NCBI GenBank assembly: GCA_021650915.1 | Contig: CP091279.1 | Coordinates: forward strand, 930,001-962,000 | DNA from: Candidatus Brocadia sp. | GTDB taxonomy: Bacteria; Planctomycetota; Brocadiia; Brocadiales; Brocadiaceae | Length of the DNA: 32,000 nt | Reading direction: 5' to 3' | Shown here: one piece after another, positions 14,045 to 30,507 of the stretch | Layout: each line of letters begins with the position of its first letter | How positions within the stretch are numbered: position 1 is the first letter of the stretch | Position numbers and translations under genes: made by a program | Notes under the pieces: generated by a model | The model's database searches: none | Told to the model about the DNA's origin: nothing | Seen by the model: the letters and a program-made list of their open reading frames with translations, nothing else

Positions 14045-17000
14045 TCATATCTTCCACCGGTAAAAGGAAAGCGAGCCGTTTTCAAGCGCCCATTTCTTCA
14101 GCACGATGGTCTGGACATAGAGGTCTTCCTTCATCGACAACGTGCCCTGAGCGCCCTTTTTCTCCATTTCTGACTCAAACTGGTCGATGAATTTCCTGAC
14201 GGCATCCTTTTCCAGATGGAGGCCCCTTTCCGTCTCGACAAAATCTTCCCGGCCAACAACCTTCAGGTTGATCAGGCGTATAATAAACCGGTCAATCCGC
14301 GCCCTGAACAGCTCTTCAATGTCGCACACAAGGGATTCATAGTTATCCTGCGGACTGTGCAAAAAACCCAGGTACGGATTCAGGCCAACCGCCCTCACCG
14401 TGGCATTGATACGGGAGAAGAGGAGGTAATAGCCCAGGTTCAGCAGGGAATTCATGCGGTCGGGACTCCGCCGGTCTCTCTTCTGAAGGGCAAAGGCATC
14501 GTCATCGATAAAGTTATTCAGCCTCTGGTAAATCTTCTTTGCCGCCGCCCCTTCCAGGCCGCGCACCTGCGCAACGTCACCTGCCTGATGCATCTGGCAG
14601 ATCACCCCTTCGAGTTCGCCGATAAACCGGTACTGCTCCTTGCGAAACCGCTGCTGAAAAAGGGCCAGGTAATTCTGCAGCTTGCCTGCGGCAAATTCCT
14701 TTGCAATACAGAGCAATTCGGTCTCAGAGAGTGAATAATACTTCCTCCCGTGTTCGTAAGAGACATCATAGTATTTTTTGGAATCCGGCTTCACCGTTGT
14801 GATGTAATACCCTGAGCCCAGCGCAATGGTGAGCGGGATATTGCCCTCCGTGCATTTCCTCAGCAGGGCGGTGGAAAATACGGTCTTTTCCATGACCATG
14901 ATCTCGCTGATCCGCCGCAACGGAATGGTCTCCACCACCTTCCTGTTCTTGCAAAGGTCAACGGCATCGCCATTCAGCGATAAAAACAGATACGGCTCTA
15001 CAATATATAATGGCTTCCGCAGCAGCTTCACGTCATCCTCGCCCTCCACCAGAACCGCAGACCTCTCGAACCGTATCCCCAGAAAATGAAACCCATCCCT
15101 GAGTGACCGAATAGCAGTCTTTTCTTTTTTTATCTTCAACCCCAACGTTGAAAGATACGACTCGGTATCCGATAAAACACCCTCTGCCTCTTCCTTCGTC
15201 CTGGTCAAAATAATAAAGTCATCTGCATACCGTATCAGCTTTACACCACGGGACGCATTGCCGCCTGCCGTCTTGTTTCCTGCGCCTCCCTTCGCATGGT
15301 CAGTCCCGGCATCCTCGTCGTGGCTGGCCAGACCCCACCGCTTTATCTGTTCGTCAAAGGAGTCCAGATAAAGGTTTGCAAGGATGGGGGAAAGCGGGCC
15401 GCCCTGGGCAAGCCCCTTTCTGCGTTCGTAATACGTGCCGTTCAGGATAAACCCGTTTCTTATCAATTTCAGCAGGATGTTTTTTAGGCAGACGTCATTC
15501 TGCGGAATAGAGCAGTCGAGCAGGTGTTCCAAAATATCCAGGTCCACGGATGGGAAAAAGTCCTCGATATCCGACTCGATCACGCACTGATAACCTTCGG
15601 CAATGGCGGACTGAATCATCCCGATAGACCGCTGTCGTGAGACCCCTTTTCTGAATCCAATGGATTCCGCTTCAAAAAAGCGGTCAAACACCGTTGAGAT
15701 GACCTTTAAAAGGTATTGCTGCACGATCAAATCCCGGAACGATAGCTGCTCAACGACCCGATCGACACCGCTCTTCTTCTTGATGGTAAAGGCAATGTGA
15801 GGGGTGGGCAGATAGCCATTACTGACGATGAGCTGAAAGAGATTCTCTGCGTACTGGTTTTCATCAAACGGGTACTTTTCCGTTTCCGACAGCGCCTGCA
15901 GCGCATGGTCATACCGGTTAATGACGTCGCGGATGACTGACACGATGATCTTCTTGTTGGGAAAGAAGGACTGAAAATATCCCGGCGACTCCTTGTGCAG
16001 GAGATAATATCCCTGGGAATTGGAGAGCTTTGTCCCGGCATGCACCTCGCTTCCCAGCAGCAAAAATGGCAGGAAATCCCTGAAACAACCCTTTATATAG
16101 AGCTTCCCCACGCAGCCATTGATGTATTGTGTCTGCCCCGGTTGGGACAGGGATGAGTGCCTGATCTCCGTGTAATTCCAGTAATACGGAAGGAGGGAAA
16201 ACCGGTCATCCTGACCGCGGTAAACGATCTCCCTGCCAAACAACCGTGAAAATCTCTTTTCCAGCGACCTGATAAATGCAGTCCTGGCAAGATAGGTGCG
16301 TGCCTTGCCCTTCTCCGGTTTAAAGGGAAAGGGGGTCAGAAATTCCAGACAGATTTCCCCTTCGTCCGGCAGGTTATCCGCCTCCCCGGCAAGCTGGCCA
16401 AAACTCCGTTCCTCAACGTCTCCCAGGGTAACTACCTCAAAATTCCTGCCCGTTACCGGGTCGGACAGGTACGCCTGAAAGGCGTCCCTCCATTGCCTGA
16501 CGTACCCATGCCCTTTTCTGAAAAAAAAGATATCCAGGGACACCTTTTCATACTCGCGCATCTTCAGGCTGTGCCTCCTGCCCCTGGCATGGAAGATAAT
16601 CAGCGGTTCACGGGCTTCTTCCCCTTTCTTGCCCCGGGGAGACTCACCGTCCGTTTCACCGTGTTGGGTTTCCCCGGCAGGCGACGTCTCCCGGGGTAGT
16701 GGTTCGGCGTCTCCTTCCGCCCCCCCTGTCCGTTCCTCACCAGGAACGGGAGAAAGATCCCCTGTCAACTCAGGAGACTCGTTCCCCATCAAAGGAGCCG
16801 GGGCAGGACGTGGGCATGCTGACGCTGCCGGGGATTCCTTATTGGGTAATAATGCGGCTGCGGAGGGCGATACAGGCAGGAGAGAGACCCCCTTCATGAT
16901 TGCCTGGAAGACGGAAAAGGGGTGTGCGGACATTGCCGGCAATGAACGGATATTCATTACCGTTGCCGACAGGCGATGCCAGCGCAGGTCTGAAAGGGGA

Positions 17001-17095
17001 TGCGCATCCTTTGCATTCACGGGTACCTTACTCCTCATACAACAGAAGCATTCATGAAGTTGCCGCCCGGCTGCAACGATCAGTAAAAGAGACAA
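14045..17095 (-). CDS. cas1: Cas6-like / reverse transcriptase / Cas1 fusion protein (type III adaptation enzyme)
   Basis: RT motifs: SDIEDFFPSVD, GLAQGGPLSPILANLYLD, LIRYADDFIILT and FHFLGIRF. Cas1 motifs: RGLEGAAAKKIY, NSLLNLGYYLL and GLNPYLGFLHSPQDNYESLVCDIEELFR. N-terminal RAMP-like region ends in the G-rich loop HAGTKLSNSQGYY. Start is uncertain: the conserved part begins near 16600 and ATG 16561 is an alternative. Confidence 0.9.
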   Translation of the reverse strand: MSLLLIVAAGRQLHECFCCMRSKVPVNAKDAHPLSDLRWHRLSATVMNIRSLPAMSAHPFSVFQAIMKGVSLLPVSPSAAALLPNKESPAASACPRPAPAPLMGNESPELTGDLSPVPGEERTGGAEGDAEPLPRETSPAGETQHGETDGESPRGKKGEEAREPLIIFHARGRRHSLKMREYEKVSLDIFFFRKGHGYVRQWRDAFQAYLSDPVTGRNFEVVTLGDVEERSFGQLAGEADNLPDEGEICLEFLTPFPFKPEKGKARTYLARTAFIRSLEKRFSRLFGREIVYRGQDDRFSLLPYYWNYTEIRHSSLSQPGQTQYINGCVGKLYIKGCFRDFLPFLLLGSEVHAGTKLSNSQGYYLLHKESPGYFQSFFPNKKIIVSVIRDVINRYDHALQALSETEKYPFDENQYAENLFQLIVSNGYLPTPHIAFTIKKKSGVDRVVEQLSFRDLIVQQYLLKVISTVFDRFFEAESIGFRKGVSRQRSIGMIQSAIAEGYQCVIESDIEDFFPSVDLDILEHLLDCSIPQNDVCLKNILLKLIRNGFILNGTYYERRKGLAQGGPLSPILANLYLDSFDEQIKRWGLASHDEDAGTDHAKGGAGNKTAGGNASRGVKLIRYADDFIILTRTKEEAEGVLSDTESYLSTLGLKIKKEKTAIRSLRDGFHFLGIRFERSAVLVEGEDDVKLLRKPLYIVEPYLFLSLNGDAVDLCKNRKVVETIPLRRISEIMVMEKTVFSTALLRKCTEGNIPLTIALGSGYYITTVKPDSKKYYDVSYEHGRKYYSLSETELLCIAKEFAAGKLQNYLALFQQRFRKEQYRFIGELEGVICQMHQAGDVAQVRGLEGAAAKKIYQRLNNFIDDDAFALQKRDRRSPDRMNSLLNLGYYLLFSRINATVRAVGLNPYLGFLHSPQDNYESLVCDIEELFRARIDRFIIRLINLKVVGREDFVETERGLHLEKDAVRKFIDQFESEMEKKGAQGTLSMKEDLYVQTIVLKKWALENGSLSFYRWKI

Positions 17096-17140: not shown

Positions 17141-17366
17141 TCACAGCAAAGCCGCAGCCAATTCTCCGCTGAGAAAGCAGGAGATTGCTTCGGACAAGAC
17201 CCTCGCAATGACAATGGGCAGTATGTCCTTGATGACATACTGCCCATTGCGAGCGAAGCGAAGCAATCCTTCTCTTATAAACAAACGGTACCCTTCTGAT
17301 AAGGGGTAAATAGGGTTGCAAACAACCTTACAAAAAAAGCGCCTTTTTACACAGCAATATTATACC
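17141..17366 (+). repeat. family 1 hairpin repeat copy
   Basis: Aligns with the other three copies. Sits immediately upstream of the Cas6-RT-Cas1 ORF. Confidence 0.75.
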
Positions 17367-17500
17367 GTTATGCAATCATGGTTAACCCCATAGGGGTGGC
17401 ATAGCATCGTTCTTTTACCAATATTTCACCCCTGCGGGGTTGAATATCGTGGTGCGTTTTTTCCTACAATCATGTCATCCCTTCGGGATTTTTCAAAAAA
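17367..17500 (+). repeat. family 3 repeat (AACCCC-N-AGGGGTG...CACCCCTGCGGGGTT long hairpin followed by ATCCCTTCGGGATTTTT)
   Basis: Near-identical second copy at 21257-21388. Confidence 0.7.
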
Positions 17501-17704
17501 CTAAATTGTTACGATAAATCCAGTCTTAATATGCAGTCCTTCCAGTCGCCCGATCAATTCGTCCCTCCCCCTCTTATTCAGCCTGCATTCAAAGACGCTC
17601 TTCTGCACCCAAAACCCGAACCCCTTCAGTACCTTATCCACCCTCTCCCGTTTCGCGTCGGAGGTGATGTCATACACCACGGCATAGTCAGATATCCCTT
17701 TCAT
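17501..17704 (-). pseudogene. cas2: 3'-truncated second copy of cas2 (67 codons)
   Basis: About 195 bp (17514-17709) differ at only 4 positions from 20944-21141. Homology to full-length cas2 ends after ...HIKTGFI, where family 3 repeat sequence takes over. Confidence 0.8.
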
Positions 17705-17766
17705 AGATTTTCAACGTCCCCCCGTCTGGTTCAATCGTGGACGATTGAACCAGCCAGGTTCGTGAT

Positions 17767-17833: not shown

Positions 17834-18250
17834 CTATCGAATCCAAAGGAAAGCGACCTCACCCTTTTTATCAAGAGTGTCGAACTCATGGTGGTCTGCC
17901 GTCATGATTCTTGCGCCTCTCGTCTTTGCCTCTGCAAGGGCGAGTGAATCGGCAAGAGATATTCTGTAAATTGCTTTTAACCTTCCTGCCTCTTTAAACA
18001 CAGCATCTTCCAACGTATCAATTGTTTGTAGTGGCAACGCCAGTATCTTGCTGAGGATTCCTTCAGCTTTGCCCTTGCCTTCTTCACGAAACACTCCGTA
18101 ATAAACCTCAGGCATGTTTATCTTGTTCATGTAAACGACACACTCTTCTTCGAACGCTTTTAAGAGTATGGCCTCAACTTTATCTGAGCCATCTTCATCA
18201 TTCAAAAAAGCAATAAGGGCACAGGCATCCAACACAAAGGCGTCTTTCAT
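17834..18250 (-). CDS. vapC: PIN-domain toxin (VapC family)
   Basis: 138 aa. N-terminal FVLDACALIAFL with a conserved acidic residue. TAATG one-base overlap with the upstream antitoxin ORF. Confidence 0.85.
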   Translation of the reverse strand: MKDAFVLDACALIAFLNDEDGSDKVEAILLKAFEEECVVYMNKINMPEVYYGVFREEGKGKAEGILSKILALPLQTIDTLEDAVFKEAGRLKAIYRISLADSLALAEAKTRGARIMTADHHEFDTLDKKGEVAFLWIR

Positions 18251-18468
18251 TATTCCAGTTCCTTTTCTTCTTTTTTCAGTCTCATATATTTTTCAGAAGA
18301 AAAATGGCTGCCTTTTAAGGAACCTCTTGCGTTCTTAATTTGGTTTTCTATTGGTTTTATCAGAATTCCTTCTTTTGTTTCGATAAATTCAACCTCTTTT
18401 CCTTTTAGCTTTCTTGCTATTTCTTCCGGAAGATTCAATCGATCTGATTTTATTACAAGAGTTTTCAT
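18250..18468 (-). CDS. vapB: AbrB/SpoVT-type antitoxin (VapB-like)
   Basis: MKTLVIKSDRLNLPEEIARKLKGKEVEFIETKEGILIKP resembles a swapped-hairpin antitoxin fold. The ORF is open from 18510; ATG 18468 is preferred. Confidence 0.7.
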   Translation of the reverse strand: MKTLVIKSDRLNLPEEIARKLKGKEVEFIETKEGILIKPIENQIKNARGSLKGSHFSSEKYMRLKKEEKELE

Positions 18469-18543
18469 GCCTGTAACCTTTCTAAGCGTAAAGTTAATAA
18501 AAGTATCCAATTATATTAACATTATGGTAAGTCTGTATCAAGT

Positions 18544-19138
18544 TTATAAATCAGGTGTTCCCCTTGCAGCATGCCATATTCTTACCATTTCAATTACCTT
18601 CTTGTTCCTTTTGACCCGATAGACAATTCGGTAAGGATTTTTCATTAGGCCTTCGGCGACTTCCCCCCCCTGTTTCCCCTCGCAAACAGGGGAAACAAAT
18701 AATGTCTCTCCCCGTTTACGGGGGGATTATGGGGGGTGTTTAAAATTCCTTACATTGAATCAGGCCATCGGCGACTTTTCATTATAAGGTTAAACCCACC
18801 CCTGAATCCCCTCCCAGGAGGGGACTTCTTTCGTCCCCTCTTGAGACTTCGTCGTGAGCTCAGTCGACCGAGGGGGTTGGGGGTGTGTAAGGCAGGAGCA
18901 AAAAGATTGGAATTCCCATACATTTAATGTAGAGCGACGAGGCTCGTCGCTCTACAACCGCATCTCGAAATTCCGGGACAACGCTACCTGATGCGGGAAA
19001 TTTTGGAAGTTGCTTTATGTGGTGGAGTATTTTGTTTCGAAATTGATTTGCAGCAGGGAGATTATTTTCCGCGATGAAAAGAATGATGTCCCGAAAGTCC
19101 AGCCTGGCAGTGGGTGACCACTCTATTTCGAGATCCAT
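18544..19138 (-). pseudogene. parE: ParE/RelE-family toxin gene split by a ~335-bp nested repeat insertion
   Basis: N-terminal fragment (19138 to ~18978): MDLEIEWSPTARLDFRDIILFIAENNLPAANQF...VVPEF. C-terminal fragment (~18640 to 18544): NPYRIVYRVKRNKKVIEMVRIWHAARGTPDL*. Family 2 repeat sequence lies between them. Confidence 0.7.
18641..18977. repeat. nested family 2 modular repeat insertion (two units plus the palindrome GTAGAGCGACGAGGCTCGTCGCTCTAC)
   Basis: Shares core, flank and palindrome modules with 4451-4681 and 25216-25489. Confidence 0.65.
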
Positions 19139-19287: not shown

Positions 19288-20672
19288 GTTTCAGTTCCTA
19301 CCATCAGAAATGTCCCCTCGTCCCTCGTCTTTCGTCCCTCGTCTTTTGTCTCTCTTTACCGTCTCAGTTCCTACCGGCAGAAAGATCCTTCCAGATCACG
19401 TTTTTAGGAGGGAAAGGCCGGATAAACGCTAGCGTAAACTGATTGGTACCTTAACCATCGACTCAACATCAAACATCGAACATCGAATGTCGAATTACGA
19501 GGTTTTCTTATCCTTCGACATTCATGATTCCTTGTTCGACATTCGATTTCTTTCTATCGTTTCAGTTCCTACCGGCAGGAATGTCCTTTCAGACATTACC
19601 GCGATTTTTTTTCTCCCCATAGCGATATGGTTTCAGTTCCTACCGGCAGGAATGTCCTTTCAGACTTTAAAACTACCGGTTTAACCATGAAGAGTTTGTT
19701 TCAGTTCCTACCGGCAGGAATGTCCTTTCAGACAAGAACATCGCGGTACTCGCGATGTTTCTACTGTTTCAGTTCCTACCGGCAGGAATGTCCTTTCAGA
19801 CATGCCACATCGAGGGATGTCCGGTGTTGGCCAAGTTTCAGTTCCTACCGGCAGGAATGTCCTTTCAGACAGGTGTTCAACACTATGGGGGGAACGCAGA
19901 GTTTCAGTTCCTACCGGCAGGAATGTCCTTTCAGACTTGTGTTTAACGGGCTCTTGTCCAGTGCTTGGGTTTCAGTTCCTACCGGCAGGAATGTCCTTTC
20001 AGACAATTGAGGAATTGCGAGAAAAGGGATTCTTGGGTTTCAGTTCCTACCGGCAGGAATGTCCTTTCAGACTTGTTGGGGGCAAAAAGGAGAGAGAATG
20101 GCTGTTTCAGTTCCTACCGGCAGGAATGTCCTTTCAGACATGGATTGGAAGGGAAAGGCGTTTGTGATACTGTTTCAGTTCCTACCGGCAGGAATGTCCT
20201 TTCAGACCAACCTGCGTGACGGTCGGTTGACCCCCTAGTTTCAGTTCCTACCGGCAGGAATGTCCTTTCAGACCTTCAGGCGAATCTTTCTCTTTCCGCA
20301 AGAAAGTTTCAGTTCCTACCGGCAGGAATGTCCTTTCAGACTGAGGTATTTAGTTTTACGCGGCATTTGATTGTTTCAGTTCCTACCGGCAGGAATGTCC
20401 TTTCAGACCATGGAAGTCACTTGCCCTCGTGGGCGTTTGTTTCAGTTCCTACCGGCAGGAATGTCCTTTCAGACTGTCAAGGAGATTACCATGAGCAAGA
20501 TTTGTTTCAGTTCCTACCGGCAGGAATGTCCTTTCAGACCGAACTGAACTGGGGCGGCGGCGATTTCAGGTTTCAGTTCCTACCGGCAGGAATGTCCTTT
20601 CAGACTGAGTTGGAAAGGAAAGGCGTTTGTAACACTGTTTCAGTTCCTACCGGCAGGAATGTCCTTTCAGAC
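19288..20672 (-). CRISPR. CRISPR array: 17 identical 36-bp repeats (19559-20672) with 16 spacers of 29-35 bp, plus two degenerate repeats at 19288-19323 and 19361-19396
   Basis: Plus-strand repeat is GTTTCAGTTCCTACCGGCAGGAATGTCCTTTCAGAC. The minus-strand form GTCTGAAAGGACATTCCTGCCGGTAGGAACTGAAAC ends in the canonical ...GAAAC tag region and matches the cas gene strand. Degenerate repeats lie at the low-coordinate (trailer) end. Confidence 0.95.
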
Positions 20673-20851: not shown

Positions 20852-21136
20852 TTAGACAATAAATGCATGGCCGTCATCAATATTCGCCTTTTTCATCTGA
20901 CCGATTACGGTGTCCCTGGATGAGTATTCTAACCGATACACCTTGATAAATCCAGTCTTAATATGCAGTCCTTCCAGTCGCCCGATCAATTCGTCCCTCC
21001 CCCTCTTATTCAACCTGCATTCAAAGACGCTCTTCTGCACCCGAAACCCGAACCCCTTCAGTACCTTATCCACCCTCTCCCGTTCCGCGTCGGAGGTGAT
21101 GTCATACACCACGGCATAATCAGATATCCCTTTCAT
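20852..21136 (-). CDS. cas2: CRISPR-associated endoribonuclease Cas2
   Basis: 94 aa. VVYDITSD...RVQKSVFECRL is the classic Cas2 ferredoxin-fold signature. Confidence 0.9.
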   Translation of the reverse strand: MKGISDYAVVYDITSDAERERVDKVLKGFGFRVQKSVFECRLNKRGRDELIGRLEGLHIKTGFIKVYRLEYSSRDTVIGQMKKANIDDGHAFIV

Positions 21137-21256
21137 AGATTTTTAAAGAACCCCTTTCTGACCCATGATATTTCAAACGCTCCTGCCCGGAGCAGAGACC
21201 GTCGCCCGGATCTCTTTCGTCCTTTCATAAAGGAAATTTGGTTGCGGCTGTGCTGC

Positions 21257-21388
21257 GTTATGCAATTATGGTTAACCCCGCAGGGGTGGCATAGTATCGC
21301 TGTTTTTCCGATATTTCACCCCTGCGGGGTTGAATATAGCGGTGCGTTTTTTCTATAATCATGTCATCCCTTCGGGATTTTTCAAAAA
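21257..21388 (+). repeat. family 3 repeat, second copy
   Basis: Near-identical to 17367-17500. Followed by hairpins at 21399-21423 and 21488-21502, which parallel 17726-17753 and 17767-17785. Confidence 0.7.
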
Positions 21389-21525
21389 GCTCCAAAGCTG
21401 GTTCAATCTTGCAGATTGAACCATTTATTTATTATGTATACTTCCTAACCCGAACGGGTCGGAAAAGTCAAAATCAGAAGCACGAGATTCATGATTCAAC
21501 CCTGTCAGGGTTAATTTTGCCCTAT

Positions 21526-22332
21526 TCATAATCCAGGACTCAGGAACCGTAAAAACGCTTCCCTTGTCATGGGGGTGGTTATCTCCGTGCCCCAGAACAG
21601 GGAGACCTTTTCGTCTCCGCCGGAATAGCCGCCGAACCGTTTCTGGAGGGCCCTGGCCCTTGCGGGAGAGCCGTAAAAGTTGATTTTTTGCATCGTATTT
21701 TCAGCGTCTACCGTGAATACGACCAAATCCATACAAAGTATCCTTTTCTCATTTTCGAAGAAATGCAGGTCTGACACATATGAGGTCTTTTCACAATTTG
21801 TCTCCACAACGTATAAATCCTGACCCCGATTACAGCCTTTCAGATAATCTCTTCTCAGCGTTTCAAAATATTCAGGTTTATACCCCTGGGCCTCAAGGTC
21901 ATACTGCCGTATCTCCAGCATTTCGTCTTCTGAGTATCCTTGTTTTCTTAATGCAGGAATATATCCCCGGTCATTCAGGGCAACACCCATCTGCCACCGG
22001 TTGAGGGTATATGAAATCAGGCAGGCGAATTGCTCCAGAGCGCTTACCGGATACAACCGCTTTAAATGCGGATATTGATGATGGTCCAGCACGAAGAGAT
22101 TGTGCCCTTTCTCTTGTAATTCCTTTTCTTTCAGAACATCCGGCATTTCCACAACAATCACGTGCCTCTTTAAATCGGCAAAGGTCTCATCGGGCTCCCG
22201 TGAAAGCACTGCCCCCCACCCTTGTGCTGATATGCGGACATCAAAAGATAACTTTTTAGCGATTTCTATAATCAAACGGCTTTCACCATCGTTGCACGGA
22301 CAGATTATGGTTGTGTTGGTGTTGTGAATCAT
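21526..22332 (-). CDS. DHH/DHHA1-like phosphoesterase (NrN/NrnA-like, CRISPR-associated)
   Basis: 268 aa. Motif I-like IICPCNDGES, motif II-like VIVVEMPD, motif III FVLDHHQ, and a DHHA1 GGGH-like FGGYSGGDEK near the C-terminus. Sits directly downstream of the CorA-like gene in the cmr operon. Confidence 0.6.
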   Translation of the reverse strand: MIHNTNTTIICPCNDGESRLIIEIAKKLSFDVRISAQGWGAVLSREPDETFADLKRHVIVVEMPDVLKEKELQEKGHNLFVLDHHQYPHLKRLYPVSALEQFACLISYTLNRWQMGVALNDRGYIPALRKQGYSEDEMLEIRQYDLEAQGYKPEYFETLRRDYLKGCNRGQDLYVVETNCEKTSYVSDLHFFENEKRILCMDLVVFTVDAENTMQKINFYGSPARARALQKRFGGYSGGDEKVSLFWGTEITTPMTREAFLRFLSPGL

Positions 22333-22410: not shown

Positions 22411-24009
22411 CTATGGTTCTTTGGGAGAACACCACCGGGATAGCTTATCTTTAAGCCGTGATATCATTTTGCAGTTAACTGTATGCCTGAAGCGCGGACA
22501 AAAGAAAACAAATAATAAACCCATACCGAGAATAATCGCAATGATCTTAAAGGGCAGGGCATTTTTTATCTGGCAGACATCACATTGCAAAATACCCACA
22601 ATCAACCCCAGGATAAGAACAGGAAAGCCCACATACGTAATCATTGTCACTCTGCTATTGGTTTCTGCCTCTATTTTGTCTTCCACATATCCGGCCAATT
22701 CTGAAATCTCTCTTTGCAGTTCATCGTAGAGTTTTTCCAGATTCAGCAAACCCATCCATTGATCATAGATTTCAATTCCTTGCTCCTGTGGGGTAACTTC
22801 AATGAACCAGTATTTATTAACAAATTTTATAAATTCACCATGCAACCTGTCTGAGTCATCTTTGAGTTTTTTTGAACACCTTCCGGTTTCAAATTCACCG
22901 GTCAACCCATCAATATCCTCTGCAAACTTCAGGAGCATCGCCCGCTGAAAGAGGACAATCAGGGCTATCTGGTAATACATGGATTTCATGTGCTGTTTCA
23001 AATATGACGGGGCATCCGTGGCGCAGAGCAACACGAAACTGTACCGGCTCATGCCAAACAATGACCCACTCTTTGCCCATCGGGCGTAGGTGTGTCTTCG
23101 TATTAAATCGTATTTCATCGCATCGTTTTCAATATTGGCGTAATTCCCGTCAACAAAGATAAAACGATACCAGTCATCGGACGTCTCATAAACATAGCCA
23201 GCGCAGCATCTATCTTGCAGTTCTTTCGATTTCGCATTATCCGAGTAATACGAAACGATAAACATGCGATCGTCAATGAAGGGGGTATAGTAAATCTTGC
23301 CGTTGTCCATTGACATGTTATACGTATGTTTCAAGTCAAAGGGAGCAAGGAGTTCTTTGATGATATTGCTTAAATACACAATATCTTTATACTTATCTTT
23401 GTACTTCGCTTCCTCAAGATCGATGGGTTTAAAATCCTCATGTATGAAATCTTTGGGGTCGCTGTCTTTGCATAAGGAAATTTTCACCGGGAGTATTTTT
23501 GATTCCAATTTGGGAGAACAGGTATTGTTTTCTCCCAGATACGGTGGATAGACCCTCCGTGCAATATCGTTATATCGGAGAAATGTCTGAAAATCGGTCT
23601 TGCTGTCTCCACGCTGTTTTTCGGTGGTTATGGTCAGCAGTCCAATCTGATTATCAAAGAGGTGGATATCGATTTCATTGACTTGTGTCTCCATCGTTTG
23701 TTGCATGTTGTTCGAATCATAATATTCCAGCTTTAAGGTATGAAAATCCGTTCGTTTCAGGAATTCCATCCCGACGTTCCCTTCTTTATTGAATATTGCC
23801 CGCTGAACATAGGGATGAAAGTAAGAGAACTCGTTGTAGTTCTTAATAGAATCAAGGGCATAATGTGCTATCGCCCAGCCTTTTTCGCTATCATTGTTGC
23901 CGCTGCTCAATATGTGAGCAATCTTATCAGGTTCTAAATTTTTTTTGTCTGCCCTTTCATACTTAAAGGGAAATATAAATATGGTAGAAAAGTCGTTGTT
24001 ATTATTCAT
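22411..24009 (-). CDS. CRISPR-associated CorA-like membrane protein (large soluble N-domain, stalk helix, two C-terminal TM helices)
   Basis: 532 aa. C-terminus NSRVTMITYVGFPVLILGLIVGILQCD-loop-LPFKIIAIILGMGLLFVFFCPRF-basic tail mirrors CorA N..M..LT...P...GMN topology, but without GMN. ATGA overlap with cmr6 (24006-24009). Confidence 0.6.
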   Translation of the reverse strand: MNNNNDFSTIFIFPFKYERADKKNLEPDKIAHILSSGNNDSEKGWAIAHYALDSIKNYNEFSYFHPYVQRAIFNKEGNVGMEFLKRTDFHTLKLEYYDSNNMQQTMETQVNEIDIHLFDNQIGLLTITTEKQRGDSKTDFQTFLRYNDIARRVYPPYLGENNTCSPKLESKILPVKISLCKDSDPKDFIHEDFKPIDLEEAKYKDKYKDIVYLSNIIKELLAPFDLKHTYNMSMDNGKIYYTPFIDDRMFIVSYYSDNAKSKELQDRCCAGYVYETSDDWYRFIFVDGNYANIENDAMKYDLIRRHTYARWAKSGSLFGMSRYSFVLLCATDAPSYLKQHMKSMYYQIALIVLFQRAMLLKFAEDIDGLTGEFETGRCSKKLKDDSDRLHGEFIKFVNKYWFIEVTPQEQGIEIYDQWMGLLNLEKLYDELQREISELAGYVEDKIEAETNSRVTMITYVGFPVLILGLIVGILQCDVCQIKNALPFKIIAIILGMGLLFVFFCPRFRHTVNCKMISRLKDKLSRWCSPKEP

Positions 24010-24767
24010 GTGAAATACCCGTAAAACACACTGGTTTTCGCCCCAACGCCAAATTCAGACAGGGCGTATTTTAAAATATTTTCCGTCTTTTTTAAAAGAG
24101 GCGACTCCTTATCCCTGAGATTTTTCCTGTGGGCCAGACGGAAACAGTATTTCTCCCCTGCGGGAACGGTCAAAAAATGGAGCGGAAGCGGTGAATACCA
24201 GTCAGCAGGCGGGTTATTGACGGGGTCTGAATAATATTTACTGTAATGAGGCGTCATAACGTCCAATTCCAGAAATGGTTTGTTATTGTCAATTAAACAG
24301 GGGTAGGCGGGGAAGAAGACAATCTCTCCTGCCTGAGCATCTCCGTTTTCTGCCCCAAAAATCCCGGCAATATCGTCATGGTTGTCTGTTTCAGCGGCAT
24401 ATCGCGCTATGCCCTTTAAAGAGCTCCCCGGAATGACCGGCAGACCGCTCGTCCAGTCAAAGGCGAAACCGATCTCCGTTGGGTGTTCGTAACCCATGCC
24501 AAAGACAAGGCGGGAAACAGTGGTCATGGTGAAGGTGATGCCGATGCCTTCCATAAGCCTTTTTCTGTTTTCAAATGCCTCTCGATATGCTTTGCTCTTT
24601 GATAAGGTAATGAAGGATTCGAAAAACTTACCCTTTCTCTTGCTGTCAACCTCCTGGAATTTATTGTCGTTATAAATATCCGCCCACTTATAATATTTAA
24701 GGGACAGGTTAGGGGTTGATAAATTATCCGTATTACCTCTTATATCTTTAGGAAGCGGGAGTTTCAT
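24006..24767 (-). CDS. cmr6: type III-B RAMP protein Cmr6
   Basis: 253 aa. GLPVIPGSSLKGIARY, a C-terminal G-rich loop FGVGAKTSVFYGYF, and MTPHY. Confidence 0.85.
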   Translation of the reverse strand: MKLPLPKDIRGNTDNLSTPNLSLKYYKWADIYNDNKFQEVDSKRKGKFFESFITLSKSKAYREAFENRKRLMEGIGITFTMTTVSRLVFGMGYEHPTEIGFAFDWTSGLPVIPGSSLKGIARYAAETDNHDDIAGIFGAENGDAQAGEIVFFPAYPCLIDNNKPFLELDVMTPHYSKYYSDPVNNPPADWYSPLPLHFLTVPAGEKYCFRLAHRKNLRDKESPLLKKTENILKYALSEFGVGAKTSVFYGYFT

Positions 24768-25146
24768 CGCCTCTCTCCTTATTGGTTTTTATATAAAATG
24801 CAAGGGCAAATTTTTTCATCCACCCTGCGTATTCAATTGCCTCTTTTTGTCTGAGGGCATATTCTTTTACTTCCATATTCAAAATGGCATCAATCAGATT
24901 GTCCTCTCCAAACAGTTTTTTGAAAACATCAACAATGTCTTCGTACCCCTCCTTGCTCTGCAAATAGGCAATGGTCTGGCCAAGGCCGTTCTGCATAATC
25001 ATTGGCGGCAGGCCTTTCAGGAAATTGACCTTTGTTTCGTCCAGTTTCTGTATCATTTCCTGCATGAGCGGCAAAACCTTCCCTCCCCGCGCTACGGATG
25101 CGGGCTGTAACTTTTTACCGCCGTCTGTCCCTGTTATATCAGCCAT
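24748..25146 (-). CDS. cmr5: type III-B small subunit Cmr5 (Cas11 family)
   Basis: 132 aa, helical. MQNGLGQTIAYLQSK is a Cmr5-type motif. Position between cmr4 and cmr6; GGGGAGGG RBS upstream. Confidence 0.8.
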   Translation of the reverse strand: MADITGTDGGKKLQPASVARGGKVLPLMQEMIQKLDETKVNFLKGLPPMIMQNGLGQTIAYLQSKEGYEDIVDVFKKLFGEDNLIDAILNMEVKEYALRQKEAIEYAGWMKKFALAFYIKTNKERGDETPAS

Positions 25147-25215: not shown

Positions 25216-25489
25216 TCAATCATGCCTTCAGTGACCTTCTCAATGTAGGGCGACGAGGCTCGTCGCTCTACAATTCTACAACCGCAACTTTGAAATTCCT
25301 GCACATTGGATTAGACCTTATCGATTTTTTATCATACGATAAAACCCACCCCTGAATCCCCTCTTTCTAGAGGGGAATTACAAAAGATTGAAATTCCTTA
25401 CATTTAATCAACCCTATCAGGGTTTAAAACCCTGACAGGGTTGACTCACGAATTCTGCGCATCGGACTTCGTCGTGAGCGCTCAGTCGA
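25216..25489. repeat. family 2 modular repeat plus tandem AACCCT..AGGGTT hairpins filling the cmr4-cmr5 gap
   Basis: Palindrome GTAGGGCGACGAGGCTCGTCGCTCTAC, core ACCCACCCCTGAATCCCCTC, TTGAAATTCCTTACATT flank, hairpins at 25410-25442. The module GACTTCGTCGTGAGCGCTCAGTCGA is also present at ~18845-18870. Confidence 0.65.
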
Positions 25490-26366
25490 ACGATTTTATC
25501 TTTTCCGGCCCAACGGGGTTGGGCGTTTGCGCAATATTATGGCTCATCTTCACAAAACCATAGCCTATGGTCTCATTACCCCCTATCTGTAATATCCGCC
25601 CGGCAATCTTCGCGCATAATTTTAACATTACGTCATCACTGCCCCGGTAAGCAGGTTTCATGATCGTGTAGAAGACGGCATCCGCGGGCACAACTTCTTC
25701 ATACCAGAGGTTCTTACTCTTTTTGGTATCGTTGTCTAACACATTTCTGGCGATGACCTGTGTGGCAGTCGTGACAAGGGTTTTAAAGATATCGTCGGCA
25801 ACGATAATGAGCCTTTGCCTGAAAATATCTTCGGGAAAAAAATGCGGAACGGTAAGGCTTTTGAGAAATGCAAACAAGGCAGATGAAGATGCAGAGCCAT
25901 CTGCAACGGCAACCGGAAAGTCTTCCAAAATTACCCGACTGGCATAAGCAGGGCTCCGGAAGGCAATATTGTCGGCGGCTGCTTCATTTCGGGATATCCC
26001 AATAAACTGCAAATCGCGCTTGAGTCTCTCGATAACAAACGGGCAGGTGATCCACTTAAACACCCCTTCCGATGAGCGGACCGGGAAGAGGAGTATTTTG
26101 GCATCCGTAAAAACCACTTTGCCTGATGCGCTGTCTCTTTGATCATTGCCCTCTGTGCCAAAGATAGCGTTGATATCCGTCTCAGACGGTCCGTCCCATT
26201 CAAAAAAACACCGCAGGCTTCCCTTCATTGCGGATGAGAACACCACAGGATATTCCGTATGCTTCTCCCGCTGCACAGTCAGGTCAATTGCCCCTGCCGA
26301 GTCTCCTGCCCCTGCATGAAGCGGTGTGAGTGCATAAAAGGTAAATAAACTGCCGTTGTCAGACAT
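25482..26366 (-). CDS. cmr4: type III-B RAMP protein Cmr4 (Cas7 backbone/target RNase subunit)
   Basis: 294 aa. ALTPLHAGAGDSAGAIDLTVQRE carries the conserved Asp (D28) in the position of the catalytic Asp. SSAMKGSLR is also present. Confidence 0.9.
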   Translation of the reverse strand: MSDNGSLFTFYALTPLHAGAGDSAGAIDLTVQREKHTEYPVVFSSAMKGSLRCFFEWDGPSETDINAIFGTEGNDQRDSASGKVVFTDAKILLFPVRSSEGVFKWITCPFVIERLKRDLQFIGISRNEAAADNIAFRSPAYASRVILEDFPVAVADGSASSSALFAFLKSLTVPHFFPEDIFRQRLIIVADDIFKTLVTTATQVIARNVLDNDTKKSKNLWYEEVVPADAVFYTIMKPAYRGSDDVMLKLCAKIAGRILQIGGNETIGYGFVKMSHNIAQTPNPVGPEKIKSFD

Positions 26367-26378
26367 AATTTCTCCCCC

Positions 26379-27554
26379 CTATAACCTATGCCCATTTGCC
26401 AGAACGACATGGTTAAATCCCATGCTGGAATATGGCGTATTTTTCAGCTTTCTGTTATCATAATCCTGTACAAACTTTCTTATTGCCTCATCTGAGGTGG
26501 CTGCCGGCAACCTGAACAGATAAACCGCCCCTGCCGGAACCGCATTTTTTAAAGGTTTCAGAGATATTCCCTGCTGCCGGGTTGTTTTCGTATTTTTTTC
26601 AAAACTGTAACCGCTTACCCTGAGAGGTGGCCGGGTAAATGCAAAGAGCAGCTCGAGGTGCAGACCGTCCGCCTCAAATAGATTCTTCTTCTCTTCTTTC
26701 TGCCGGAAAGGTATCCAGCCTTGCTCAAATATGCCGTGCTGGAGCAGCGCCATTCTGAACGTCTTTGTTTTTATCATCTCAGAGATAAGCGTCTCTCTTG
26801 TTTGTCCGAATTTCTGTTCAAGAAGGGAATCAGAGGCAATGCCGCTCACATACACCAGATGCGATTCGCTGCCAAGCTTCAGGGCGCCGGCGGCAAGAGG
26901 TTTGTCCGTCGCGCAATAAAAGCCCATACGATCGCGCAACCGGTTGTACGGTGTGGTGTAGAATTTCGTTTCCTCCACCGTCCTGTTGTGTTCCCTGAGT
27001 TTTGCCGTATCAAGGGTGATGCCGACACGGTCTTCAGGCATCCAAAGCCCTTTCTCCGCGACTTCCATCTCATTCAGAGAAAGCCGGTACCTGCATATTT
27101 CCGACAGCGAGATAAATTCCGGCGGATACCGGTCGTCAAGTTTTCCGTCAGGGATAGTGGGACAACACAGGTCGAATCCGCAATCACTTTCCAACGACGC
27201 CATCTTTATCGGAAAGGCGGAATAACACCAACGATCCCCGTCATTCTTCCGGAAAAGATCGGAGGGCGTTTTGAAATAGATTTCCCCGGTATCAGCGTCC
27301 ATCAGATACGGGCCGGTAATATCCACGCCCAAGGTTTCATCGTTACCAATCTTTTCTCTCGCACGTTCCGCATCTGTCAGACTGCCGTGAGGATCAATCA
27401 GATGATGATCGGCAAGGAGTTTATTCCGGACAAAACCCTGGAAGGTTGACGGATACGGAGGGAATACCCCTTCTGTATACCATTCGCCAAAATGGAAGGA
27501 TTTATTACCCCTGAAGAACAATACATCGTAAGGTCTGACGAAATAATCGGGCAT
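26379..27554 (-). CDS. cmr3: type III-B protein Cmr3 (Cas5 family)
   Basis: 391 aa. N-terminal VRPYDVLFFRGNKSF is the Cmr3 signature. Position after cas10. Confidence 0.85.
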   Translation of the reverse strand: MPDYFVRPYDVLFFRGNKSFHFGEWYTEGVFPPYPSTFQGFVRNKLLADHHLIDPHGSLTDAERAREKIGNDETLGVDITGPYLMDADTGEIYFKTPSDLFRKNDGDRWCYSAFPIKMASLESDCGFDLCCPTIPDGKLDDRYPPEFISLSEICRYRLSLNEMEVAEKGLWMPEDRVGITLDTAKLREHNRTVEETKFYTTPYNRLRDRMGFYCATDKPLAAGALKLGSESHLVYVSGIASDSLLEQKFGQTRETLISEMIKTKTFRMALLQHGIFEQGWIPFRQKEEKKNLFEADGLHLELLFAFTRPPLRVSGYSFEKNTKTTRQQGISLKPLKNAVPAGAVYLFRLPAATSDEAIRKFVQDYDNRKLKNTPYSSMGFNHVVLANGHRL

Positions 27555-27556
27555 AT

Positions 27557-29242
27557 CTATTTATCTCCTGCTAAAAATCGGGCATATAAAAGCGCATTAA
27601 TCATTGCGTCAATACCCTCAAACTTCATCAAAAGCCCCACTATCTCCATAATTTCGGCGTTGGCTTTATCAACCCCTCTTGTTCCTGCAATGATGGTATA
27701 AAGATAGTTCTCTTTGTGCCTAGCATCAGTTATCGCCTTCAGAACCTCCTCTGACTCCTTTATGCGATAAGGCGTTGTCCGTGATATATCAGCGCTCAGT
27801 AGTAATTCCTTCAGCCTTTTTAAGTCTCCGATAAGTTTGTTGGAGAATGCGAAATTGAAAGTCTCTGTATGTCCTTTGATTAAAGAGATGGCGGTTGCAT
27901 TTTTACCCCTGAATTTCTTTGCCTTTCTGAGCATCCCGCAGGCAGAGAGTATCGCCTGTGACAACGGATATTTATGATAGCAAACAACAACCCCGGCAGA
28001 TAAGGTAAATTTTTCTGCCATAGGTTTAGTTAAATCATTTTTCAGAAAATAGCCGTTGTAGAGATTGTTCAATTCCCCGATGCAGTCGAGGAGATATTCC
28101 GGGTGGATGACGAAGTTTATATCCTCACCTCCGGCAAAGATAAGCTGTCCCTGATTACGCGAGACCGTGGCATTAACCGCATTTGAAAAATCTGATATTA
28201 TCCTTGAGACGTCTTGTATATAACCCGGGAATTTATCCCTGTTTTCCTTTAAAATATTTCCCATATTATCACCGTCCATAGAGATGATGCTATAGAAAGG
28301 ACGGTCGAGCCATGGTAGTTTTATCTTATCCTGATATTTTTCCGTCAACGACTTTTTCCACGCAGTAAACTTCTTTCTGAGATTCGGGTCATAAAAAAAT
28401 CTCCCCTCAGAGTCCTTCTCTTCTGAAATCTGCTCGCATTCCCTGATGAGCGCTTTGTATGCTTGTTTCATTTCATCATCTGCCGTATCAATGCATGCCT
28501 TGATTGGACTGAAAGCAATGTCAGAGGTGGATTGATAACGAGGTTTTTTTAATTCTGCCCTGGTACCCGAAAAAATGGACTTTACTGCCTCAGGCAGGAA
28601 TCTCTTTAACAGACAGACGCTGCAGATATGTTCTTCATTGTAAAGACCGGCATCTTTGTCCACTACTTTTGAATATATCCTTTTCCTGTCTCCGCACAGG
28701 CTGCATTTCTCCCATTTCGCAATCGAGTTGTTGCCGGTGATTTGCCTGAATGGTCTGAGGGCTGAACGTATCCTGATCTTACGTTCAGCCTCAAGAAATT
28801 CTTCAAAGGTGGGTTGTGCATCTTTAATCTCGTGTATCGTATAAAAGAAATGAAAGAAGTCTTTTAATTCGCCATGATCAAAAACACCTGCTTTTCCTTT
28901 TTGCTCCGCCAGTTTTCCCACTTTTAGAGCGATGGTCTTAACGATCTCTTCAATAATTGTTTTCAAACCATTTTCTATGGCACTCCTCCGGCTATCAGTA
29001 AAGGTGACATAAATCTGGTCGGGAACGCTTCCGCAAGCGATTGTCCCGTTCCGTCGATACATGGGGTTGTTATCAAGATACGGGAGAAACAGCGTGCCGC
29101 CGTTATTCGTAATATCCCTTGCAACCTCAGACATCACATAGGAAAAAAGGAAGGATGCGCCCCAGAAATCCACGGTCTTTCTGCTCTGCCTGACGAAGTC
29201 GTAGATAGGGCCTATTTCACAGATGAGGAGGTAGTTTTTCAT
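27557..29242 (-). CDS. cas10: Cas10/Cmr2, HD-less, 561 aa
   Basis: N-terminus IGPIYDFVRQSRKTVDFWGASFLFSY. Zn-finger CSLCGDRK...CSVCLLKR. Palm motifs SMDGDNMG and FAGGEDI (GGED at 28121-28132). No H-D motif region upstream. Confidence 0.9.
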   Translation of the reverse strand: MKNYLLICEIGPIYDFVRQSRKTVDFWGASFLFSYVMSEVARDITNNGGTLFLPYLDNNPMYRRNGTIACGSVPDQIYVTFTDSRRSAIENGLKTIIEEIVKTIALKVGKLAEQKGKAGVFDHGELKDFFHFFYTIHEIKDAQPTFEEFLEAERKIRIRSALRPFRQITGNNSIAKWEKCSLCGDRKRIYSKVVDKDAGLYNEEHICSVCLLKRFLPEAVKSIFSGTRAELKKPRYQSTSDIAFSPIKACIDTADDEMKQAYKALIRECEQISEEKDSEGRFFYDPNLRKKFTAWKKSLTEKYQDKIKLPWLDRPFYSIISMDGDNMGNILKENRDKFPGYIQDVSRIISDFSNAVNATVSRNQGQLIFAGGEDINFVIHPEYLLDCIGELNNLYNGYFLKNDLTKPMAEKFTLSAGVVVCYHKYPLSQAILSACGMLRKAKKFRGKNATAISLIKGHTETFNFAFSNKLIGDLKRLKELLLSADISRTTPYRIKESEEVLKAITDARHKENYLYTIIAGTRGVDKANAEIMEIVGLLMKFEGIDAMINALLYARFLAGDK

Positions 29243-30507
29243 AGTTTAAACTCTATGGGTGTTATCCCGCTCAATTGCTGACGGATAAATTCATCAAACA
29301 CCGTGTTATTGTGTACATATTTTCCGTTATTATTGTCTATCAGTATATCCATGCCTTGTGCTGGATTTGAAATCATAAAGAGAAAGGCAGGGTAATAGTG
29401 CTTCCCAATCTTATGGACACTGATCAATACAGGACTTGCAAAGCGATCGCCAATACCTTTGCCAGGTTCTTCTTTACGCTTTACCATTGCCTTATTTCCA
29501 TTGCTAAATCTGTATCCAATCGGAAGCCCAAAGACAGGCTTTTTCAGTCTATTTATATTATTATTCAGGACGGCAGATTTATCAGGCTGATATTCCTGCC
29601 TGAAATATTGAAATCTCTTGCCTGCTTCATTTAAAGCAAGTTCCCATGTTGTATACGGAATTTTGTCTAACGTCTCATTGCAAGTAACAGGTGTTTTATT
29701 TTCAATAAAAAACAATCTCGCATTTACCATATTTGTGTATTTTGTGCTGGAAATGCTTGATATACCCTTCCGTTGCCTGTATTGTTTCCAGCCCATCAGC
29801 CCCTGATCGACTAATTCTTTATGGCTATTTAAATCTTTGGCGGGGCAAAAATCAAAATGTTTCAAGACATCATCATGAAATGGCTTTGGTAAAATATCTA
29901 CCTGATTTGATTGTAACTTTCCAAACCCGCGCCTCGCCCTGTTACCAAAACCACCAAAATGAAGTGCAAACCAGAAGGAAATGAGGGCGTTTTCAAATGC
30001 CTGTTTGTCCACAGATGTCATAATCAGATCAAAAGTAGAGCCATGGGTAATAAACTTTCTTATATCAATTTTTCCCTCACGTGTCGTCTTAACATAATTG
30101 ATATAAGCCAGATACTGATAACCATTCAGTGGATAATTTTTGCCCTCTACCTTTGAACACTGATAATTTGCCCAGCAGGTATTGCGCCATTCCTTTATCT
30201 CTATCTTTGGATTTTCAATTCTTATTTTTATCTTTGAAGCAACGTCTGTGCTTCCGAATATCTCGTCTTCTGATCTCTTTAATAGTTCAAGATTATCCCC
30301 GCCGAAAATAGCTCTGAACCACCACCGTAATACCCCTTTCAGAGAAGGAACCCGCAATTCAGCGGTTTTTAACTTTTCTTGCCAATTTATTGTTGTCTTT
30401 CCTTGTTTATTTTTACGAGTTTCAGAGAATTTTTTACCATCCGCAATTTCCCCATTACTCATCATCAAGGGTGTTATTACCTCTAATTTGAAATTGGCTT
30501 TATACAT
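29239..30507 (-). CDS. cmr1: type III-B RAMP protein Cmr1
   Basis: 422 aa. LEVITPLMMSNGE...LRVPSLKGVLRWWFRAIFGG. GAGGAG RBS. ATGA overlap with cas10. Confidence 0.8.
   Translation of the reverse strand: MYKANFKLEVITPLMMSNGEIADGKKFSETRKNKQGKTTINWQEKLKTAELRVPSLKGVLRWWFRAIFGGDNLELLKRSEDEIFGSTDVASKIKIRIENPKIEIKEWRNTCWANYQCSKVEGKNYPLNGYQYLAYINYVKTTREGKIDIRKFITHGSTFDLIMTSVDKQAFENALISFWFALHFGGFGNRARRGFGKLQSNQVDILPKPFHDDVLKHFDFCPAKDLNSHKELVDQGLMGWKQYRQRKGISSISSTKYTNMVNARLFFIENKTPVTCNETLDKIPYTTWELALNEAGKRFQYFRQEYQPDKSAVLNNNINRLKKPVFGLPIGYRFSNGNKAMVKRKEEPGKGIGDRFASPVLISVHKIGKHYYPAFLFMISNPAQGMDILIDNNNGKYVHNNTVFDEFIRQQLSGITPIEFKL

Follow-up and report, generated by a model that had tools for sequence, protein, structure and literature searches.

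What does a CRISPR-associated protein of the CorA family do at the membrane once the Gly-Met-Asn (G-M-N) ion-filter motif of CorA is gone? The question is raised by a stretch of 32,000 nucleotides (nt) from Candidatus Brocadia sp. (contig CP091279.1, positions 930,001 to 962,000), hereafter the window, to which all positions below refer. Its gene corA (22411..24009, minus strand) encodes a protein of 532 amino acids (aa) in which the tripeptide G-M-N occurs nowhere. We consider it highly probable that this gene encodes a membrane protein that acts as an ancillary effector in a CRISPR system of type III-B (Cmr) and is a member of the CRISPR-associated CorA family. The family alignments further indicate that the missing filter is a derived loss shared by a whole clade of these effectors.

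The protein matches the PADLOC CorA profile PDLC01174 over aa 8-503 (E=2.3e-103) and a second PADLOC profile, PDLC01043, at E=1.9e-91, and 477 homologues were found at E<=1e-5. Members of the family that carry the filter score 416-461 bits against the CorA model, and members of the window's own clade 313-345 bits. The closest loci come from metagenome-assembled genomes (MAGs) of Candidatus Brocadia, with CorA at 89%, 84% and 73% aa identity, and a CorA that is 99% identical lies on a contig derived from SRA data (Logan). Just downstream, nrn (21526..22332, minus strand) encodes a CorA-associated DHH-family phosphodiesterase of 268 aa, with DHH in 'VLDHHQ', that matches the PADLOC DHH_CorA profile PDLC01149 at E=6.5e-19. 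The operon order is cmr1-cas10-cmr3-cmr4-cmr5-cmr6-corA-nrn, with corA last but one, followed by cas2 and a CRISPR array. Nearly every one of the 80 related genome loci with enough sequence to show the neighbouring genes is likewise linked to type III-B. In the window locus CorA is the sole ancillary effector; neither Csm6-2 nor a CARF effector was seen. The strong CorA match, the DHH_CorA neighbour and the complete cmr operon therefore point to a known effector type and to no new kind of protein; the first catalogue of type III-B loci that hold both CorA and NrN dates from 2018 (bioRxiv 10.1101/270033). An earlier reading of this DNA made without database searches (the sequence-only reading) had recognised the CorA-like character of the protein and its link to the Cmr genes, and under-stated its identity, as the family and its NrN partner are already characterised.

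That reading had also inferred coupled expression from an overlap with cmr6, which is present. The minus strand reads TTCAC-ATGA-ATAAT at the junction, so that the corA start codon (ATG, 24009-24007) and the cmr6 stop codon (TGA, 24008-24006) share the 4 nt of ATGA at 24006..24009. Divergent members of the same clade also have overlaps of 4-20 nt: that of L083 is 4 nt long like the window's, and those of L082, L085 and L086 measure 17-20 nt. Promoter and terminator scans stayed at chance level, with no terminator between cmr6, corA and nrn. The overlap suggests that corA is translationally coupled to cmr6.

The protein divides into a soluble and a membrane part, all encoded on the minus strand. 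The N-terminal soluble domain, putatively ligand-sensing, covers aa 1-340 (22990..24009) and is described below by an AlphaFold2 (AF2) model of the isolated domain and by the ratio of nonsynonymous to synonymous substitution rates (dN/dS). It is followed by a helical funnel and stalk region (aa 341-452, 22654..22989) that contains the motif TPQEQGIE (aa 406-413) and in which the stalk sequence LNLEKLYDEL begins at aa 422. Kyte-Doolittle hydropathy identifies two hydrophobic segments, at aa ~455-476 and ~485-506, which we assign to the transmembrane (TM) helices TM1 (aa 455-476, 22582..22647) and TM2 (aa 485-506, 22492..22557). A basic cytoplasmic tail (aa 507-532, 22414..22491) with 7 Lys or Arg against 2 Asp or Glu residues closes the protein. 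The full-length AF2 model, a monomer like all our models and built on an alignment of 37 sequences, has a mean pLDDT (per-residue confidence) of 84 and a pTM (predicted TM-score) of 0.81. In the funnel and stalk region it places helices at 344-374, 380-400, 409-421 and 424-476, the last of which runs unbroken from the stalk through TM1 and is followed by a short loop and a helix at 485-503 that corresponds to TM2.

Fold and profile searches bear on whether the likeness to CorA is real. Searched against the Protein Data Bank (PDB) with Foldseek, the full model finds Thermotoga maritima CorA in its top 7 matches (E 2.5e-3 to 1.4e-2, probability 0.99-1.00, ~215 columns). The accompanying TM-scores are low (0.19/0.27), as expected when the helical half of a monomer alone matches. 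A profile built from the family alignment and searched against PDB sequences again finds T. maritima CorA, at E=1.9e-4; profile positions 417-505 span the CorA stalk, TM1, GMN loop and TM2, and the consensus 'gilgvn' falls on 'GIYGMN' of CorA. Searches with the single window sequence gave less: phmmer against PDB chains returned no matches, the NCBIfam scan no match and the Pfam scan a sub-threshold DUF2207_C only. A search of viral folds in BFVD found nothing significant. Judged from the predicted model and the family profile, the resemblance of the C-terminal half to CorA is not a product of chance. The stalk, TM1, short loop, TM2 and basic tail that the sequence-only reading had described are thus recovered by hydropathy, AF2, Foldseek and the profile search in agreement; TM helices are predicted, and the best folds are those of CorA.

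The N-terminal domain is a different matter. Modelled in isolation (aa 1-340) it reaches a pLDDT of 88.6 and a pTM of 0.89, and its search against PDB folds gave no significant match (best E=0.029, probability 0.12), with CorA appearing at E=0.064 and probability 0.08. Bet v1/START-like and phage-tail folds among the results were discarded as noise (probability <=0.12). The N-terminal domain of CRISPR CorA has been described as a 'unique fold' (PMC10600005; PMC13294483), and no CRISPR-CorA structure was found in the PDB copy that we searched.

The window CorA reads GILQCD where CorA has its filter. The residues homologous to G-M-N are Q475-C476-D477 (22579..22587), an assignment on which the family alignment, a fixed spacing of +69 after TPQEQG and the profile alignment to the T. 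maritima GMN agree. We surveyed the position in 120 homologues from a protein search, 80 genomic loci, 6 further close-relative loci and 111 additional representatives of 50%-identity clusters. Most members carry G-[MIVL]-N at a fixed distance after TPQEQG (69, sometimes 76, residues), as in the GFWGMNE of Bacteroides and Phocaeicola loci; the variants GIN, GVN and GLN also occur among CRISPR CorAs. The filter of ZntB is GVN. The tripeptide can thus vary within the superfamily, as it does in ZntB and similar members. Such variants (GVN, GIN) keep the Gly and the Asn, whereas the window CorA keeps neither.

The absence was set against the phylogeny of the family. We used a neighbour-joining tree that is independent of the TM region, since it was built from the N-terminal soluble domain only. 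This tree gathers the window CorA and all homologues at least 36% identical to it into a single clade of 47 sequences, from Brocadia, Nitrospirota, Omnitrophota, WS2, Altiarchaeales and some Bacteroidota, and none of the 47 has the motif. Outside the clade 112 of 137 sequences have it, and the other 25, which are scattered, have degenerate versions such as GMS, GIS and GMI. Of the further cluster representatives, 90 could be scored, and 70 of these have the motif. These two counts rule out that absence of the filter is general to CRISPR CorAs. The loss noticed in the sequence-only reading is therefore borne out as a derived one, with about 80% of sequences outside the clade keeping G-[MIVL]-N against 0/47 within it, and the alignments show it to be real and to extend over the whole clade. 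The CRISPR CorA family tends to such losses repeatedly, and the window clade is one example. The clade makes up ~25 of the ~525 representatives with E<=1e-30 (50% clustering); at E<=1e-3 the family as a whole numbers 2,520 cluster representatives.

In the literature that we searched we found no discussion of the GMN motif in CRISPR CorAs. The motif is kept in 8 of the 11 sequences of the published CorA-1 alignment, where it can be seen in Supplementary Fig. 10, and the text of that paper never mentions it (Chi et al., 2023; PMC10600005). Published CorA phylogenies rest on complete genomes only (PMC10600005), and the window clade is known mainly from MAGs, which may be why it has so far gone unremarked.

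The Brocadia subclade has a further feature at this position. Residues C476-D477-V478-C479 (22573-22584) form a CxxC within Q-C-D-V-C, at the filter and the start of the periplasmic loop. It is kept in the homologues P0001-P0005 and in loci L001 and L002, and other clade members read FWQIY, FWAIY or IWLAV. Were the protein a pentamer, the CxxC would give its outer mouth ten cysteines.

The soluble domain, for which the sequence-only reading had recognised no motif, turns out to be the conserved, putative sensor domain of the family. In two family alignments (A1 and A2, of 37 and 57 homologues), R151, R152 and D246 do not vary and D247 reaches at least 90% conservation; the motif TPQEQGIE is likewise among the invariant or near-invariant residues. 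The pair R151-R152 (23554..23559, minus strand) is the counterpart of R152/R153 in Bacteroides fragilis CorA, and D246-D247 (23269..23274, minus strand) that of D219/D220. Both pairs are also marked in the published CorA-1 alignment, and changing either the RR or the DD pair of B. fragilis CorA to AA abolishes immunity (PMC10600005). In that organism Cas10 makes the conjugate of S-adenosyl methionine and AMP (SAM-AMP), CorA binds it and NrN degrades it, and immunity requires CorA, NrN and the TM domain (PMC10600005). For III-B CorA, SAM-AMP binding and Cas10-dependent immunity have been shown in B. fragilis only (PMC10600005).

Given the invariant RR and DD pairs and the operon context, a membrane effector gated by a Cas10 signal is the best reading of the window CorA. 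Binding of foreign RNA by the Cmr complex would activate the palm/cyclase site of a Cas10 that lacks the HD domain, yielding a nucleotide signal that is most likely SAM-AMP. The signal would bind the cytoplasmic N-terminal domain of CorA at a site with R151/R152 and D246/D247, and the stalk helix would pass a conformational change on to the membrane hairpin of two helices, which is presumably organised as a pentamer like that of CorA. The membrane would become leaky or depolarised and the infected cell would stop growing, and NrN, encoded just downstream, would degrade the signal and so reset or tune the system. We infer the identity of the signal, the formation of a pentamer and the opening of a pore or other damage to the membrane.

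Several observations weigh against this reading. The clade is known from sequences alone, and even for B. fragilis CorA a pore is no more than a putative mechanism (PMC10600005; PMC13294483). The Pfam CorA family PF01544 does not match the window CorA at E<=0.1; a precomputed match is present in relatives at about 30% identity. The cyclase motif of the window Cas10 is GGED and not GGDD (aa 371-374, 28121-28132), as it also is in L001, L002 and L083. At the column of B. fragilis Cas10 E151, which with D70 makes up the two conserved acidic residues near the acceptor site, the window Cas10 sub-family has Arg, with an invariant Glu (E153) one position off where the alignment is ambiguous. In the membrane part the GMN filter is missing, and dN/dS in pairwise comparisons of the window CorA with three relatives is 0.66-1.04 over the TM region (aa 451-510), an imprecise figure from 60-75 codons. 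At matched divergence of the N-terminal domain, TM1 identity is ~0.57 times N-domain identity in the window clade versus ~1.0 times in GMN-bearing relatives, which conserve the TM1 pattern F-L-P-x-T...A-G-x-F-G-M-N. A precisely built pore is therefore not guaranteed.

The last two observations concern what the membrane hairpin does. The same comparisons give a dN/dS of 0.14-0.22 for the N-terminal domain and 0.09-0.18 for the stalk, pointing to strong purifying selection on the soluble domain and stalk, and indicate that constraint on the membrane part of the clade is relaxed. With the G-M-N motif lost and TM1 evolving fast in this clade, selection of the kind that CorA applies to Mg2+ is improbable for anything that crosses or disrupts the membrane. 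Our preferred reading is a non-selective leak, opened by a pentamer like that of CorA. Alternatively, in a protein of the same family and with the same activation, the hairpin may have stopped forming a conducting pore of the CorA type and serve as a generic membrane anchor or disruptor; clustering driven by the ligand, which would perturb the bilayer, is one way, and hydrophobicity would be all that is selected. The loss of the filter in 47/47 clade members would fit this, as would a TM1 whose rate of change, measured against the N-terminal domain, is about double that in GMN-bearing relatives, and a dN/dS of 0.66-1.04 in a region that keeps two or more hydrophobic helices in 45/47 members against 0.09-0.22 elsewhere; non-pore disruption of the membrane was also left open by Chi et al. 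(PMC10600005). However, the match to the CorA fold persists in the unbroken helix of stalk and TM1 and in the TM hairpin, the TM1 residues T458, G461 and P463 are fairly conserved in the clade (97%, 77% and 72%), and the dN/dS comes from those few codons. We hold the anchor or disruptor to be possible and somewhat doubtful. A fold that is kept, a sequence constraint that is relaxed and a filter that is lost do not separate it from a leak pore.

The features of Cas10 bear instead on the signal to which the favoured leak would respond. The window Cas10 has the Pfam domains Cmr2_N, Zn-binding and palm2 (palm2 E=3e-25) and no HD domain. The Asp corresponding to D70 of the SAM site is invariant in 50/50 CorA-linked Cas10 sequences and is D75 in the window. 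Since the Cas10 of the window clade is a divergent sub-family, the activating signal could be something other than SAM-AMP, such as a cyclic oligoadenylate, SAM-AMP2 or another conjugate. Cas10 of the window type matches the Cas10 of GMN-type CorA loci at just E~1e-11 to 1e-30, and besides GGED and the Arg in the conserved-Glu column it has PDQ for PDR and is without the post-motif 'FxAPV' segment that GMN-type loci conserve; for other CorA clades cyclic hexaadenylate (cA6) or SAM-AMP2 has been proposed or shown (PMC11229360, PMC13294483). Set against this, Cas10 keeps D75 and has the invariant E153 one residue from the column in question, CorA has invariant RR and DD pairs, no Csm6-2 or CARF effector accompanies the locus, and the NrN with its DHH motif, a mark of SAM-AMP loci in the literature, is always adjacent or fused. 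We therefore regard another signal as unlikely.

A decaying, non-functional corA, whose missing filter would reflect loss of function altogether, is very improbable. Near-neutral dN/dS in the TM region would agree with decay, and one relative does show it: locus L005 (5928-11402, Candidatus Brocadia sp. DTUAMX2) has a corA frameshifted inside the TPQEQG motif and has lost cas10 and cmr3 from between cmr1 and cmr4. The window gene, however, is an intact open reading frame in which the soluble domain and stalk keep the low dN/dS given above. Many phyla are represented in the GMN-less clade, which shows intact frames, conserved synteny and corA-nrn fusions, and the cmr operon, array and adaptation genes of the window are complete. 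The dN/dS and the conservation, with purifying selection on two-thirds of the protein, rule out a pseudogene. Least probable of all is an ordinary housekeeping Mg2+/Co2+ transporter that happens to lie beside a CRISPR locus, which has the C-terminal fold likeness to T. maritima CorA in its favour only and, against it, the lack of a PF01544 or NCBIfam match and of G-M-N, an N-terminal domain akin neither to the alpha/beta/alpha cytoplasmic domain of CorA, which has Mg2+-sensing sites, nor to another solved structure, the strong CRISPR-CorA profile match, the 4-nt overlap with cmr6 and the type III-B linkage of nearly all 80 loci.

Among characterised systems, the window locus most directly invites comparison with the B. 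fragilis III-B CorA/NrN system (PMC10600005). The two have in common a Cmr operon, an HD-less Cas10, an adjacent DHH-family NrN and an RT-Cas1 module (RT, reverse transcriptase), and their CorA proteins share a large soluble N-terminal domain, the RR and DD pairs, TPQEQG, a stalk helix and two TM helices. In contrast, the window CorA is only about 28-30% identical to the Bacteroides-type CorA and reads GILQCD where the latter reads GFWGMN. Its gene stands between cmr6 and nrn, whereas most GMN-type loci have nrn-corA upstream of the cmr genes, and its Cas10 belongs, unlike that of B. fragilis, to the divergent sub-family with GGED; knowledge of the window clade comes entirely from genome data.

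The canonical Mg2+/Co2+ channel, T. maritima CorA (PDB 2IUB/4I0U/8TMB; PF01544), shares with the window protein the stalk helix that continues into TM1, the short periplasmic loop, TM2 and the basic C-terminal tail. It differs in its filter, G-M-N against Q-C-D, in its match to PF01544 and in its N-terminal domain, to which the window's N-terminal domain of ~340 aa, with no solved structural relative, is unrelated; the window gene, furthermore, lies inside a CRISPR operon. Fusions of NrN and CorA in Aliarcobacter butzleri and other Campylobacterota (the CorA-1 cluster) belong to the same CorA family and show the same NrN pairing, as in P0053, an Aliarcobacter-type fusion that matches CorA at E=1e-138 and DHH_CorA at E=8.5e-69. 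In these fusions NrN is N-terminal and GMN is kept, whereas in fusions of the window clade NrN is C-terminal and in the window the two are separate genes. The type III-D2 CorA of Gammaproteobacteria bacterium HyVt-522, which we compared by the description in the paper, is also a TM effector needed for growth arrest that depends on a Cas10 signal (PMC13294483). It belongs to another subtype, with fused Cas7x3/Cas7-5 and a VapBC-like toxin-antitoxin (TA) module in place of NrN; it is ~15% identical to III-B CorA, and its system uses SAM-AMP and SAM-AMP2 (PMC13294483).

Gene order within the clade is largely that of the window. corA follows cmr6 and precedes nrn in the window and in L001, L002, L005, L082, L083, L085 and L086. 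Clade member L081 and the majority of loci with GMN have corA upstream of the cmr genes, and there nrn frequently stands immediately before corA. corA and nrn are adjacent or fused in all nine clade loci that extend past corA (L002, L004, L005 and L081-L086), and in two fusions, at L084 563-3079 (P0029) and L085 10001-12391 (P0043), NrN sits at the CorA C-terminus after TM2. Between cmr6 and corA, three Brocadia relatives carry a GC-rich palindromic insertion of 185-466 nt that resembles a miniature inverted-repeat transposable element (L001 5587-6052, L002 5638-5822 and L005 9634-9871), and it is this insertion at the junction that accounts for their lack of a gene overlap.

The remaining cmr genes lie upstream of corA on the minus strand: cmr6 (24006..24767, TIGR01898 E=1.2e-44), cmr5 (24748..25146, PF09701 E=1.3e-16), cmr4, a RAMP gene assigned by PF03787 (E=1.9e-20) and operon position (25482..26366), cmr3 (26379..27554, PF09700 E=1.3e-36), cas10/cmr2, which encodes the HD-less protein of 561 aa (27557..29242, TIGR02577 E=1.8e-40), and cmr1 (29239..30507, TIGR01894 E=5.8e-18). 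On the other side are cas2 (20852..21136, minus strand, PF09827 E=5.2e-13) and the CRISPR array (19559..20672, strand not assigned), which has 17 intact, identical 36-nt repeats of the sequence GTTTCAGTTCCTACCGGCAGGAATGTCCTTTCAGAC. Two further degenerate repeat copies lie at ~19288 and ~19361, and one spacer is duplicated, the blocks 20145-20207 and 20610-20672 being 95% identical. The adaptation module of the same locus is a Cas6-RT-Cas1 triple fusion of 1016 aa (14045..17095, minus strand; Pfam Cas1 3.6e-59, RVT_1 3.7e-30, Cas6 3.5e-6), which implies acquisition of spacers from RNA.

Between this fusion and cas2 lie ~3.7 kb with TA genes and the array. A segmental duplication of ~360 nt (17366-17728 versus 20945-21391, 90-95% identity) brackets the TA genes and the array and yields a shortened second copy of cas2 (17501-17704, 67 aa). 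The TA genes, between RT-Cas1 and the array, encode a PIN-domain (VapC-like) protein (17834-18250, minus strand, PF01850 2e-14) with a small upstream open reading frame (18250-18510, minus strand), and a ParE-like toxin (18860-19138, minus strand, PF05016 5e-8). A VapBC-like module is needed for defence in CorA-bearing type III-D2 systems (PMC13294483). Elsewhere in the window, which has a GC content of 45.6% and in which an Rfam scan found no RNA family, there are genes for a GAF-PAS hybrid histidine kinase/response regulator (26-2497), a PAS-GGDEF diguanylate cyclase (8929-9834) and a multi-haem cytochrome c (12039-12758). These genes are unrelated to the CorA finding and consistent with an anammox-type host.

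In a type III-B locus corA and NrN are an expected component, and the SAM-AMP signal was identified in 2023 (PMC10600005), so that the clade-level pattern of filter loss adds something modest and useful and does not reveal a new system. The structure and mode of action of the CorA effector were still described as unresolved in June 2026 (PMC13294483). In most CRISPR CorAs the G-M-N filter and a canonical TM1 that lines the pore are preserved, the pattern that selection for ion conduction would give. Tentatively, a wide clade may have dropped the selectivity filter and relaxed the constraint on its pore helix while its sensor domain, stalk and NrN stayed under strong selection. If so, and if the clade is fully functional, toxicity would not depend on CorA-type Mg2+-selective conduction, and killing or arrest would proceed by a non-selective leak or by non-pore disruption of the membrane. 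An effector that works without GMN would be evidence that cells are not killed through Mg2+-selective conduction. CorAs with and without GMN would then be a natural experiment on how CRISPR CorA acts. If the assignment to Brocadia is right, this locus also puts CRISPR immunity of the SAM-AMP type on record for anammox-type bacteria.

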